64,000 nucleotides of DNA. Source: Eledone cirrhosa (taxonomy: Eukaryota). The notes under the pieces were generated by a model that was given only the letters and a program-made list of their open reading frames with translations, ran no database searches and was not told the origin of the DNA. Below are positions 7,617-58,292 of this stretch, in pieces. The stretch lies in assembly GCA_964016885.1 (NCBI GenBank), contig OZ024752.1, positions 9,920,001 through 9,984,000 of the forward strand, read 5' to 3'. Every line of letters starts with the position of its first letter. The stretch's first letter is position 1. A program made the translations under genes and the position numbers.

Positions 7617-8279
7617 GTACCCCTTTACCTTTGTTGTGTTAAAGCGAATAACTACGTGTCTACTCTGGGAGTTTACTTAACATTACCTATTGAGTACTCA
7701 TGAAGTAAGCAGTACTAGTAGTGAAACCATTGCTAGTCTCGTCAAATTATATATATATATATATATACTTATGATAAATATTGATGTAATTCATTGAAGC
7801 ACTCAACATCATGTTTCTTCTTCCAAATATAAATGACAGAGTATAAGTAGAATGAGGAAATTCGAAGTTGTAGCTTTATTAATGAAATACTCTTTAATAT
7901 CTACAACTTTGTATCTCCCACATTCTTTCACTCTATATAAAATATATAGAGAGAGAATGGGATATATCTCTCTCTCTATCTATCTATCTCTCTCTGTATA
8001 TATATATATATATATATAAAACGAAAAATCAGAGATGCATCTGGACTCAGTTTATTGTGTGTTACAATTGTTTAGTGAGAACATTTTTTCAGAGAGTATT
8101 GCATGTGTCCGAAGAACATGCAGTTCTAGAATCAGACAGATCCATAAAATGATCGTGTCTCGAGCTATCTGTCAGTCAGAAGGAACCATATCCTATTGTT
8201 ACGACTGCCTCCACAAGCGTGACCTGTCGAGAGTCTGGCTGTCATGTAGCCATCTTTCTAGGGGTTTAACTGAGTGTCT

Positions 8280-8460
8280 CTTGCCAGTTGGTTTTGCCCG
8301 TCAGCTAAATCCAGCGATTCTTTCCATAGATATTCTGACCTCATGTTCATATTATCGGACCTGGGATTTCTTAATTGGTAGAAGTAGTAGCTCTACCTAC
8401 ATCAAAAAACCTGATCTTTAAGCTATGCACTCCACGTTATTTCAGAGACTCTTTCGGAAG
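8280..8460 (-). mobile_element. RTE/Expander LINE fragment
   Basis: ccagcgattctttccatagatattctgacc...agtagctctacc is homologous to the 2700-3170 units. Confidence 0.65.
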
Positions 8461-8628
8461 AACCCTAAATCAGTCGCTTGTATTAGCGTTCGTATCTTTT
8501 CTGTCAATCTCCAAGAATCATCCCCAGAGAAAAGGATTAGCAAGGAGAAGGATCCTACCACATGTAGTTACTTTATCTTCATATTAGGTCCTATTCAGAG
8601 CAGGTAATTCATTCTCCATAACATTTAG

Positions 8629-9150
8629 GTTCACTAGTTTTCTGTAAATTTCTGTCTCTAGTACTTCCAGTTCTTACTAATGCCTCTTCTGTTATTCACT
8701 AGTTTTCTGTAAATATCTGTATCTAGTACCTCCAGTTCTTGGTAATACCTCTTCTGTTGTTCACTAGTTTTCTGTAAATATATGTATCTAGTACCTCCAG
8801 TTCTTGGTAATGTCTCTTCTGTTGTTCACTAGTTTTCTGTAAATTTCTGTCTCTAGTACCTCCAGTTCTTGGTAATGTCTCTTCTGTTGTTCACTAGTTT
8901 TCTGTAAATTTCTGTCTCTAGTACTTCCAGTTCTTGCTAATGCCTCTTGTGTTGTTCACTAGTTTTCTGTAAATTTCTGTATCTAGTACCTCCGATTCTT
9001 GCTAATGTCTCTATTGTTGTTCACTACCTCTCTGTAAATTTCTGACTCTAGAACCTCCAGTTCTTGCTAATACCTCTTCTGTTGTTCAGCAGTTTTCAGT
9101 AAATTTCTGTCTCTAGTTCTTGCTAATACCTCTCTAGTTGTTCAGTACTT
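8629..9150. repeat. Minisatellite, 65-bp unit, ~8 copies
   Basis: gttcactagttttctgtaaatttctgtctctagtacctccagttcttgctaatgcctcttctgtt recurs every 65 bp. Confidence 0.92.
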
Positions 9151-9421
9151 ATCCACAGGTGTGTCTGATCAACTCTCATATGTCCACAGATGTGTCTGAT
9201 CAACTCTCATTTGTCCACAGATGTGTCTGATCAACTCTCATTTGTCCACAGATGTGTCTGATCAACTCTCATATGTTCACAGATGTGTTTGATCAACTCT
9301 CATATGTTCACAGATGTTTCTGATCAACTCTCATATGTGCACAGGTGTGTCTGATCAACTCTCATATCTGCACAGGTTTGTCTGATCAACTCTCATATGT
9401 CCACATGTGTGTCTGATCAAC
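9151..9421. repeat. Minisatellite, 31-bp unit, ~9 copies
   Basis: tgtccacagatgtgtctgatcaactctcata is repeated. Confidence 0.92.
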
Positions 9422-9662
9422 CGCACCACTTTTGACGTTTAATTTAATCTCTATTTTGGAAGAAACAACTTTCACCTTTCTTCCCAGGTAATTAATGTTT
9501 ATGACTCGAATACTTTCTTGCACCTCTACATAAAGTCATATGACTAGAAAATGTTTACAAAAATATAAAACTTTAGACACATCGTAGGAGAAATTGAATT
9601 TCCACCTCCAAATTACATAATCTGCACTCATATGATCCCAAACCTTTGACGAGAAATAAATG

Positions 9663-9901
9663 ATTTTGCTACAATATCACATAACATTTCCGTATAATTT
9701 TGCTACAATATCACATAACATTTCCGTATAATTTTGCTACAATATCACATAAAATTTCCGTATAATTTTGCTACAATATCACATAACATTTCCGTATAAT
9801 TTTGCTACAATATCACATAAAATTTCTGTATAATTTTGCTACAATATCACATAACATTTCTGTATAATTTTGCTACAATATCCCATAACATTTCTGTATA
9901 A
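9663..9901. repeat. Minisatellite, 34-bp unit, 7 copies
   Basis: ttttgctacaatatcacataacatttccgtataa is repeated. Confidence 0.92.
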
Positions 9902-10269
9902 CGCCATATTCAGCTTTTCTCTCTTACATAATCTAAGCTTATATTTCATTACGATCGTAATTGTGTTATATATATATTGAGAATAAAGATAGTTGATCTT
10001 TACATATCCATCCGCAGCTTAATGTCTGAGATAAATACATGGAAACAAAGCGTAAATGGACTGCTATGTTAGGTTTTCCAGGTCAGCTTGACATACTGTA
10101 CATAAACAGTTTCAACAGTTGGGATGGTAACCAATGGTTACATGTAATATCCTGGTTGTATTCATTCAACAAACTGTTCATCCATGCTAAGACTGAAATC
10201 AAATCATGGTTTTCATTTTCAGAGACATAAAGATTGACTTTGGAATTCGACATAGGTGCCGTTGGTCTT

Positions 10270-55242: not shown

Positions 55243-55345
55243 ATTGTTATACTTTGGGAGGGTCATGTTGCCAATAAATTGAAGTGAACGCAACTGGTGC
55301 GTGTGTTTCTTATTGGCCACATGACCCTCCCAAAGTATAACAATA
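55243..55345. repeat. Fold-back copy of the 25855-family tail
   Basis: attgttatactttgggagggtcatgttgccaataa ... ttattggccacatgaccctcccaaagtataacaat. Confidence 0.85.
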
Positions 55346-57377
55346 TATATAAATATATATTTATATATGCACATATTACATATTTAGCATTTATATATAT
55401 CTATACATAAATACATTATATACGTCATATATATATATATAATGATGTATATATATATATATATGTATATTTATATATATATATATATTATATATATATA
55501 TTATATATATATTATATATATATATATATATTATATATATTATACATATATATATATATATATTTATATATATATATATTATATATATATTATATATATA
55601 TTATATATATATTATATATATTATATAAATATATATATTATATATATTATACATATATATATATATATTATATATATTATATATATATTATATATATTAT
55701 ATATATATATATATTATACATATATATATATATATTATATATATTATATATATATATATATAATATATATAATATATATATATATATATATATATATATA
55801 TTATATATATATATGCATTTATATATATTCATACATACATTATATACTTTATATATATATATATATATATATATATATATATATATATATACATACATAT
55901 ATATATATAAATGAATGCATTTCTATATATTTATACATACATAAATTATATACTTAAAATACACATATATATATAAATATATATATGCTTATATATGCTT
56001 ATTCTGTATTTGTGAAACAAATAAATACTTCATATAACTGTCAAATATTCTGCAGAAATGACAGTTAATATTATATTACAGAAATATGGATAACGATTCA
56101 ATACAAATCTGTTGTAAGTGCTTGAGTAAGGAACAGAGAATTGAAGATAAATTTGACAGGTATTTTTAAGATCAATATATCTAAAAAAGATGACAATGAA
56201 TATTATGATCAATGGAGAATATAAAAACTATTTGGCTAACAAAGGAATTATTTTTGATATTCCAATTCTTTTATTAAAACACATTAACCTATTCTTTAAT
56301 GAGAAATTTTTCTCATAAACACAATAGCTTCTTGAAGTACATAATATGTGTTATGTTTGTCGGCAGCCAATTATTATATTAACCACTTCCAAGAAACTTA
56401 AACTTAGATGGTATGTACTTTATAGTACATTTCGAAATTTCTAAACCAAATTCATAATGTTACTATATATCTCTCTCTGTGTTTCTCTCACAACTACACA
56501 CACACACACACACACACACTATACCCGCGCGTGCGCGCACACACACATATACATATAATGTGAAATGACAGGAGGCGAAATATATACATATATATATACT
56601 CGGTTCCCGCACCACCAACGTGATTCAACATAGAAAATGGATGAATTGCATAATGTCGAATGCTTTTCTCGTATTACGTCATGATTAACATTACAGAACA
56701 ATTCTACCCAGTGGTAAAATACGTATATATATATATATATATATATATATATATATATATATATATATATATAAGAAAGTAAATCCATAGAATCATTTGA
56801 TAAAATATATACAGTATTTCTTCTCCCAATCAGCTTCATTAACCACATAAAAAATCAATTAAACAAGGCTATAAGTTTAAAATGTACCTATGAAGAAACA
56901 ATAGATAAATAAATGATAGCTATTTTATCCGCGATCCATAGCCACAGTAGATTTACCAAGCATTTCTAGTAGCCCGTAGAAATTGACTAGACTTATAGTT
57001 AACCATACACAATTAGGTACAACATCATATATATATATGTGTATAAATATGTATATATATATATATATATATGTTTAATAACAATATTAGTGAGAGTAAA
57101 TTTTACTCATTTACTAGGTGTACTTTAGCTTAATGCAATGATAATAGTTTTTACTTGCGTGATTTCTATTGATTGTTTTGATTGTAATTAAACTCTGATG
57201 ATACCTATGATTTGTGCTAACTAAAAGCAAATTGTTAAATAAAATAATTAGCTGTCTGTGGCATATTACAATGGGAAGAAACAATTATCTGTGATTAAAC
57301 TCCTTGAAATTTAATTTTGGTTTATAAACAAATTGAAACTCTCTATCTCTTTATCTACTTATCTAATTATCTAATTA

Positions 57378-57495
57378 TTTCTCCCGAATGAAAAAGTTCT
57401 AGTCTTGTAGAAGCCATTTCTATATTATATATTCATACTCTGCTGTGTATTGAGTACCTTACTTACTGTGGTTACTACCGATTGAACCCGGGATA
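57378..57495 (+). mobile_element. Truncated copy of the 53294 HHR family with tail
   Basis: gaatgaaaaagttctagtcttgtagaagc...tactctgctgtgtattgagtaccttacttactgtggtta...gattgaacccggga. Confidence 0.8.
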
Positions 57496-57916
57496 AACTT
57501 ATATCTGTATATTGTATATACAGGTTTCGTCCGGGCTTTGAGAACTTTTGCATGAATTTAGAAAGAGACGCATAGCACATCAATAAAACTCTATATTTAG
57601 ATACAAATTGGTACAAATATTATTTACGATACATTTATATCTATTCAATGACAGGTCTACTTCAATATGGCGTCTCGAGCCTTGTCATACCCGAATAAGA
57701 AGACCTCTATCAATATACGGCATTGTGATGGTAAAGGCGGTTTGACAGGTTTTATAATTTGAGGTCTATGATTGACCTCTCTTTCAACTAGACCCTATAA
57801 TAATAGTTCATGAATTGAGATCTGGCAAGCTATATATATATATATATATATATATATATATATATATATATATATATATATATTAGTATTGGTGCTCTGA
57901 AATAGCGATGTATACA

Positions 57917-58088
57917 TGAATCTATGTATAGTATATTTGGCAATATACCGTATGTTTACTTAAATGCATTTAGAAGAGCATATGCTATCAGTTTTAAAGT
58001 AGTGTCTTAAAACTAATAGCGTATTGTCTTCTAAATGTTTTTAATTCAATATATGGTATATTGCCAAATATACTATACATACATTCAT
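57917..58088. repeat. ~170-bp imperfect palindrome between (TA)n tracts
   Basis: atgaat.tatgtatagtatatttggcaatatacc ... ggtatattgccaaatatactatacata.attcat. Confidence 0.85.
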
Positions 58089-58100
58089 ATATATATATAT

Positions 58101-58292
58101 ATAAAATGATATTAAATAAATGGAAAATAAATTTATAAAACCATATTTATTCTATAGCTTCCATTTATTTAGTTTCCATTTATTTAATATCATTGTATAT
58201 TATACTCCAGAAATCTTGTTGAGTGCTCTGAATCAGTTACAAACATTTATATTTGTTGAATTACCAACAAATTGAATATCCCCTCTGCTTAT
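58101..58292 (+). mobile_element. Fold-back element plus tail (inverse copy at ~12327-12465)
   Basis: aatgatattaaataaatggaaa pairs with tttccatttatttaatatcatt. Tail TACTC (58203)...GAGTG (58221)...atatcccctctgctt. Confidence 0.75.

Follow-up and report, generated by a model that had tools for sequence, protein, structure and literature searches.

A tandem pair of bulged hairpins at the insertion ends of Hydra-clade Penelope-like elements in Eledone cirrhosa

Penelope-like elements (PLEs) of the Hydra clade have a short single open reading frame (ORF) with RW[KR] and DKT motifs, a CxCx5C linker, and CxxC and CxH around the last E and N, and they lack a CCHH motif (Craig et al. 2021, PMC8557442). 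According to the same source, their pseudo-long terminal repeats (pLTRs) contain a minimal hammerhead and occur in tandem and inverted copies, and the elements insert at (TA)n. The parts of that description compared here give only the hammerhead and a tail of 30-40 bp, and no paired hairpin. Here, we report on a hairpin in a window of 64,000 nucleotides from Eledone cirrhosa (assembly GCA_964016885.1, contig OZ024752.1, positions 9,920,001 to 9,984,000 of the forward strand; position 1 below is the first letter of this window), where tails are about 70-100 nt long. The original prediction, made from the letters of the window, had noted a TACTC-N(11-26)-GAGTR hairpin in the tails of families that it took to be unrelated. 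Judged by sequence comparison, this motif is real, conserved across the clade and positioned to explain the PLE tail, and from this we infer its function.

The host elements and their fold-back, tailed insertions are already known, as far as the consulted parts of the literature go (PMC8557442; PMC3846280). Non-LTR retrozymes and PLE fold-back stumps are likewise short, non-coding, hammerhead-bearing pLTR derivatives, and the stumps have head-to-head pLTRs and a one-sided tail (PMC7229834; bioRxiv 10.64898/2026.07.22.740005; PMC3846280). Unlike retrozymes, the window copies are single fold-backs or stumps and not tandem arrays. In the compared parts of these three sources, neither this hairpin nor an end-positioning signal is described.

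The closest functional data come from the Poseidon PLE of Anolis (PAc). In vitro, its reverse transcriptase (RT) has two internal start sites, between which the tail lies, and both target strands are cut and extended (Frangieh et al. 2024, PMC11167929). Hammerhead cleavage was not needed, and a dimer was predicted. PAc, however, belongs to a different clade, and its starts lie inside one AC-rich stem-loop 111-118 nt into the ORF, whereas the Hydra elements studied here have two separate conserved hairpins in the 5' untranslated region, each just downstream of an end. No conserved motif at the PAc starts is reported in the compared parts of that paper, with supplementary figures S1-S2 outside the comparison. 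The paired hairpin was also not found in the literature searched, which comprised open texts, with Repbase notes and subscription papers outside its scope.

All eight sites of the original prediction were found where it had placed them, with CACTC at 38915 and the site at 18475-18503 on the minus strand. The site at 25632-25701 has a long loop and ends in GAGTC. The enrichment over shuffled sequence, which the prediction had named as a check, was borne out in the window by two patterns. The literal form YACTC-N11-26-GAGTR occurs 11 times; 200 block-wise dinucleotide shuffles gave 2.0 on average and at most 8. Nine copies in the 64-kb window match a stricter form that requires a UU bulge and at least 3 pairs in the upper stem, and this form was absent from each of 30 shuffles. 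The same form was found 38 times in an 800 kb genome sample and 0 times in the reversed sequence. This sample consists of 80 arbitrarily placed 10-kb genome stretches and, together with the window, is called the unbiased set. Genome-wide (3.0 Gb), a tight pattern gave 8,241 matches, compared with 25 for the reversed control. Further window copies beyond the prediction are located at 37671-37696(-), 49955-49980(+), 53534-53559(-), 60613-60638(-) and 7799-7842(-), in addition to a variant at 7288-7333(-) and decayed copies at 18257-18282(-) and about 53736-53759(+).

The motif differs from the 5-bp stem with a free loop that had been proposed. It is a bulged hairpin with an RCUC/GAGY lower stem, a 2-nt bulge on the 3' side and a covarying upper stem, followed by RCU, and the T/R flank pair is not kept. 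Covariation was examined in 204 instances picked by sequence alone (ACTC, GAGTRC and a TA run 25-85 nt downstream), which were grouped by tail into 35 clusters, some of them probably not true members. In the 16 clusters with at least two copies, the first three upper pairs are formed in 40 of 48 cells, compared with a permutation mean of 25.6; none of 20,000 permutations, in which relatedness was ignored, reached this value. Only a bulge length of 2 gives 40/48, while other bulge lengths give 11-17/48. Over all 35 clusters, 72 of 105 cells are paired. An Rfam scan of the window at the gathering score returned two tRNA-like matches only and none to the hairpin.

Hydra elements from marine metagenomes behaved in the same way. 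These were chosen by protein alone with an alignment query; a single-protein query gave no match. Among 70 distinct metagenome hairpins, 165 of 210 cells are paired (permutation mean 110.7, maximum 135, relatedness ignored). Directly above the bulge, 45 have C-G as the first pair and 24 have U-A, the bulge is UU, UC or UA in 69/70, and the flank RCU is ACU in 63/70. On the sense strand, G-U pairs exceed A-C combinations by 11 to 5, which is a weak excess. These data bear on the idea that the motif acts as double-stranded DNA, such as a promoter element or a factor site in the pLTR, or forms part of the hammerhead ribozyme. The highly conserved 3' arm sequence with its ACU flank fits this idea, and stem III of some published Hydra hammerheads, in the parts of the literature compared, reads ACUC/GAGU. 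Yet the loop length varies with compensated pairs while the bulge is fixed at 2 nt, no GAA precedes the hairpin, and the hammerhead closes 27-62 nt upstream with stems of its own. We consider the idea very improbable, and the hairpin was rejected as hammerhead stem III on the last two grounds.

Metagenome loci also show where the hairpin lies relative to the ORF. Of 78 loci, 44 were used for ORF-anchored counts, and 43 of these include the N-terminus. Upstream of the 43 ORF starts, 25 strict hairpins were counted in 9,342 nt (20/43 loci), compared with 0 on the antisense strand and 0.17 in shuffles, and only four in 85,149 nt inside ORFs. When the minimal core was scored in the 33 loci with at least 130 nt upstream, 14 had two, 12 had one and seven had none. 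Twenty of the metagenome ORFs are 33-38% identical to that of family A, the best-resolved Eledone family below, and their DNA is at most 77% identical among the 20. By eye, the hairpin is also present in the published consensi Hydra-2_Amil and Hydra-2_Ajap and occurs twice before the ATG in Hydra-1_Ajap (coral, sea cucumber), and a degenerate form can be seen in Hydra-1_Amil, Hydra-1_Obim and Hydra-1_Crog, as far as the consulted entries go. On the basis of these comparisons, conservation of the hairpin extends across the Hydra clade. One could invoke chance, or the common descent of a single repeat family, because the genome counts are inflated by copy number and the literal pattern hit 8 in 1/200 shuffles. 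Against this, the hairpin is kept where the ORFs have diverged to the extent given above and where flanks and loops have diverged, and it is concentrated upstream of ORFs and rare inside them. We regard this explanation as negligible and count it as refuted by the metagenome counts, the covariation and the ORF divergence.

The families had been taken as unrelated. In fact, all that could be traced run into Hydra-clade ORFs, and we conclude from these frames that the motif-bearing families are 3' stumps of Hydra-clade PLEs. Read-through copies link families A, B, C, D, E, I and J to Hydra ORFs, and family H is linked via a partial frame. L133 (L-numbers such as L121, L133 and L325 are labels of the individual genomic loci compared) is a full-length Hydra copy and ties in the window fold-back at 7334-7453. 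The copies at 7661, 7799 and 25632, for which the search gave no read-through parent, can be placed among the Hydra families only tentatively, by the hairpin and its position. No ORF remnant of these elements was found in the window, where the copies are 3' stumps.

Family A encodes a single ORF of 737 aa from Met, with YRDD at 352 and an IIY..YVG region at the C-terminus. RWR is found at 37 and DKT at 118, and DKG is absent; the same holds for these motifs in families B, C and D. The CxCx5C linker, CxxC and CxH are located at 596, 694 and 721. There is no CCHH, and no cysteine pair between the endonuclease half-motifs. For families other than A, only N-terminal parts were available, except for L133 and L135. 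A Pfam search with the family A ORF gave no match at E 0.1. Hence, the call of an RT with a C-terminal GIY-YIG-type endonuclease is based on motifs and homologues, and the named homologues come from an octopod. A type I hammerhead core with stems was called by script in 6/9 references and not in B, D and E; these cores are predictions only. The elements insert at (TA)n and have tandem or inverted pLTRs and a one-sided tail. Based on ORF motifs and element layout, and on the published proteins viewed, we assign them to the Hydra clade. In family A, many copies that are 95-99% identical keep an open frame of 745 aa, and copies of family B lie in tandem arrays whose unit is about 3.5 kb long (L325-L328). 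By these copies, Hydra families A and B look recently active.

Other identities were considered. Neptune ORFs, returned by a GIY-YIG search, turned out not to be the parents and then served as a control: of 14 such ORFs from the same genome, none has the core in the 400 nt upstream or the 2.5 kb downstream, and a relaxed scan behind six Neptune hammerhead cores found no hairpin. A Neptune-clade identity, in which DKG, a Cx2-5CxxC linker and a CCHH endonuclease would be linked to the motif, is not borne out by these results. The Neptune-type PLEs L071-L090 have open frames of up to 1,096 aa, and some end in TA runs without a hairpin. A Naiad identity, with an N-terminal endonuclease and no canonical hammerhead, does not fit as the endonuclease is C-terminal and hammerheads are present. 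Selenocysteine insertion sequence (SECIS) elements occur in Naiads. A SECIS reading was rejected for the present motif, which is located upstream of the ORF, and no stop interrupts the family A frame.

In read-through copies, the order is hammerhead, hairpin 1, 71-99 nt, hairpin 2 and start codon. Hairpin 2 is located 34-69 nt before the ORF start and is usually GCUC/GAGC, a compensated change of the first pair. In the minimal stem of family C hairpin 2, a compensated third pair was observed (L201, L204, L212, L226). The tail motif of the original prediction corresponds to hairpin 1. Hairpin 2 lies just outside the tail end and is missing from stumps.

We mapped the ends against nine natural read-through references, with site 1 just before hairpin 1 and site 2 just before hairpin 2. 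In the unbiased set, all 79 TA-abutting 3' ends fall at -20 to +3 of a hairpin with a mode of -9 to -6, 31 of them at hairpin 1 and 48 at hairpin 2. Over all loci, a set biased towards tailed ends, the figure is 267/275. In L133, both ends are about 6 nt before their respective hairpins. In metagenome contigs, 11 of 14 internal homology ends are at -6 to +4 of a hairpin, after one read-through row and 11 contig-end rows had been left out. The hairpin spacing of 71-99 nt equals the tail length, family by family. Because most ends sit 6-9 nt 5' of one or the other hairpin, the PLE tail is the hairpin-to-hairpin interval. As the ends track both hairpins, the motif first noticed marks the short end. 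Its supposed place just beyond the inverted-repeat end holds generally, with the exception of the copy at 7661, which has no inverted arm. Similarly, the offset to the element ends is constant, as expected from the prediction, but the distance to the far (tail) end is family-specific. The first TA run begins at +52 to +111 from the hairpin in typical window copies, and loci from the pattern search have a hammerhead core upstream of the motif and a TA run about 60 nt downstream, with a few of them continuing into an ORF.

The window copies and associated features are as follows.

7288..7333, minus strand: variant hairpin 1 (GCUC/GAGC, UC bulge) of the fold-back 7334-7453, whose family is that of the full-length Hydra copy in L133
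7662..7697, plus strand: hairpin 1 with UU bulge and 4 pairs in the upper stem; the copy is truncated at its 5' side and lacks an inverted arm; hammerhead-like core from 7517
7799..7842, minus strand: hairpin 1 with long loop and 6-pair upper stem including G-U pairs
18257..18282, minus strand: decayed hairpin 1 of the family B fold-back 18203-18404
18474..18500, minus strand: hairpin 1, family E; fold-back 18504-18717; tail end at the TA run near 18425
25633..25701, plus strand: long-loop hairpin 1 directly 3' of the fold-back 25512-25628; the 3' flank departs from RCU
37671..37696, minus strand: hairpin 1, family B; one change breaks the upper stem
38798..38910, no strand: head-to-head arms of family B, of which the left one ends at site 1, next to a TA run
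38916..38941, plus strand: hairpin 1, family B
38942..38987, plus strand: remainder of the family B tail up to site 2, which in the read-through parent L325 is 6 nt before hairpin 2
47156..47213, plus strand: minimal type I hammerhead core, family D; going by the D2 reference, the cut is predicted about 50 nt upstream of hairpin 1
47263..47289, plus strand: hairpin 1, family D, with UA bulge; tail end 47346 (site 2)
49955..49980, plus strand: hairpin 1, family B
53349..53388, plus strand: hammerhead core, family C; predicted cut 27 nt before hairpin 1
53415..53435, plus strand: hairpin 1, family C
53534..53559, minus strand: hairpin 1, family B-like; upper stem partly broken
57437..57457, plus strand: hairpin 1, family C
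58204..58226, plus strand: hairpin 1, family A/H-like, directly 3' of the fold-back 58094-58204
60613..60638, minus strand: hairpin 1, family B; the fold-back 60644-60775 has a site-1 end at 60775 and a site-2 end at 60561

Probable decayed hairpins in the window, at 18085-18160 and 53736-53759, retain the 3' arm and upper stem and have a changed 5' arm. Three fold-back plus tail elements in TA runs of the window are without the motif (37887-38300, 25854-26100 and 61383-61910). The tRNA-like Rfam matches at 4765-4837 (+) and 1629-1697 (-) are probably heads of short interspersed nuclear elements. Minisatellite arrays are located at 8629-9901, 2708-3174 and 22515-22738, with units of 65, 31, 34, 99 and 14 nt. 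The ORF fragments 34799-35209 (+), 59495-60043 (-) and 20750-21382 (+) presumably resemble C-terminal parts of long interspersed nuclear element proteins. Elsewhere in the genome, tandem satellites contain the hairpin or its 3' arm inside units of about 58, 68 and 26 nt (L056-L062, L145-L149; G000:C26:20002872-20004517).

Two simpler determinants of the ends were tried and rejected. The hammerhead cut does not give the short end, as the predicted cuts lie 27-62 nt upstream of hairpin 1 in 6/9 references and are not ends; the exceptions are a single D2 end at -50 and three E ends at about -40. TA-likeness alone does not set the ends either, as 8/9 references have equally or more TA-like 8-mers elsewhere that are unused. 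The latter bears on the possibility that the role of the hairpins lies in RNA binding, in cis preference or in the control of translation near the start codon, with the ends set by A/T microhomology to a TA primer. Hairpin 2 is indeed close to the ORF start, the bases 5' of each hairpin are A/U-rich, and short microhomology is seen at junctions. Nevertheless, the better TA-like stretches nearby are left unused, families B and E use sites that match only 4-5 of 8 bases, and the same offset is found at both hairpins though their spacing varies. This possibility appears improbable to us.

Head-to-head pairs combine the two kinds of end. In the unbiased set, 38/41 pairs join site 1 with site 2. 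Over all loci, 92/117 have one end of each kind and only three are like-with-like. The two arms share subfamily variants in 235/244 cases in family B, compared with 0.53 at random, and in 39/40 in family C. This arm concordance points to one template for both arms, as far as shared variants can tell. About a dozen site-1 ends lack an inverted partner; 12 were called, of which one or more in error. Family B also forms tail-only insertions with the order TA run, hairpin 1, tail and TA run, bounded by sites 1 and 2 (L434, L437, L439, L440). The tail-only pattern gave 709 raw, partly overlapping matches, and 4/5 distinct loci inspected are of this kind. In L121 (1628-3892, minus), a full-length family A copy with its protein encoded at 1628-3838 (minus) has its 5' boundary at site 2 and its 3' end at site 1.

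Taken together, we think it probable that an RT-endonuclease binds each hairpin on the RNA and that reverse transcription starts internally just upstream. The offset to an end is alike for both hairpins. As hairpin 2 is absent from the product, it must act on the donor. In such a scheme, the read-through transcript of a tandem copy would fold both hairpins, and the protein, possibly as a dimer, would nick both strands of a (TA)n target. One 3' end would prime at site 2 and copy the tail, hairpin 1 and the pLTR. The other 3' end would prime at site 1 and copy the pLTR only, and the two truncated cDNAs would be joined head to head. The scheme would account for the one-sided tail on the fold-back and for a tail length equal to the hairpin spacing. 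It would also account for the position of hairpin 1 just past the inverted repeat and for the absence of hairpin 2 from stumps.

Several observations weigh against this scheme. Single copies fold with ordinary energies (z -1.8 to +0.5), and only 4/8 window copies have the bulged form as their predicted minimum. The lower stem is nearly invariant, and it may therefore be read as sequence. Family C hairpin 2 is a 4-pair stem without a bulge, yet its end is used, and family C site-1 ends are scattered from -19 to -3. In the unbiased set, 47/126 copies have no TA-abutting end and were left unclassed. Arm concordance is weak in D and E and less clear in A, and it would also follow from fold-back synthesis or gene conversion. 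Site 1 is the 5' boundary in rare tail-only insertions (8/36 boundaries in all loci, 0/7 in the unbiased set). L121 has its start at site 2. A cut or fold-back model accounts equally well for both observations. In addition, the Poseidon RT starts inside its AC-rich stem-loop and not upstream of one, according to the compared parts of PMC11167929.

Some of these points lead to a second proposal, in which the hairpins direct a cut and not a start. Here, the protein would cleave the RNA, or else a DNA intermediate in the form of fold-back cDNA or a tandem donor, shortly 5' of each hairpin. Snap-back synthesis, halted or resolved at site 1, would yield the inverted arm. The coupling of site 1 with site 2 and the arm concordance are equally explained, and tail-only insertions bounded by both sites as well as L121, running from site 2 to site 1, are covered. 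In the consulted parts of the literature, the tail was ascribed to endonuclease resolution (Craig 2021, PMC8557442), earlier work cited in Frangieh 2024 (PMC11167929) reportedly found the Penelope tail to be needed for endonuclease cleavage of plasmids, and self-priming was argued by Arkhipova 2013. A cut does not readily explain why hairpin 2 is missing from products or why solo site-1 ends occur without a fold-back arm. The excess of G-U over A-C on the sense strand (11 to 5) argues weakly against it, the genome-wide search found no TA runs directly before family A hairpin 2, and a related PLE shows internal initiation directly (PMC11167929, as far as consulted). We judge a directed cut, the main rival of an internal start, to be rather unlikely.

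Regarding the internal start at each hairpin, bulged or structured RNA that is bound by an RT and fixes the start of synthesis is familiar from hepadnaviral epsilon, the R2 3' untranslated region and telomerase RNA. We use these as works-like comparisons only and claim no homology. Epsilon templates from its own bulge with protein priming. In the elements described here, unlike epsilon, the ends lie outside the hairpin and the primer would be nicked target DNA. The original prediction of a conserved cis-acting element for RT recognition or priming fits the covariation and the fixed end offset, from which its function is inferred. Its further suggestion, a role in TA-site choice, is unlikely because the Neptune copy L078 ends in a TA run without the motif and the ends of several metagenome copies, adjacent to the hairpin, lie in sequence that is AT-rich but not TA.

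More tentatively, we suggest that a clade-wide hairpin pair docks a dimeric, telomerase-related RT-endonuclease. Each subunit would hold one hairpin of the same transcript and prime one cut target strand just upstream. The spacing alone would set the tail and the head-to-head insertion, and the target would receive a copy of any RNA placed 5' of a hairpin of this kind. If true, the hairpin would be a portable internal-start signal.

How PLEs choose their start, and how the one-sided tail and the inverted arms arise, is an open question for the sister group of telomerase RT. One in vitro PLE study found two internal starts without a signal, as far as the compared parts of that paper go (PMC11167929). 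The Hydra clade has many intact copies in the present genome, and the hairpin may serve as a marker for Hydra-derived non-coding repeats, which are MITE-like (resembling miniature inverted-repeat transposable elements) and numerous there. A short, covarying motif that is present twice and at a fixed offset from both ends would make the PLE start question testable via about 25 nt.

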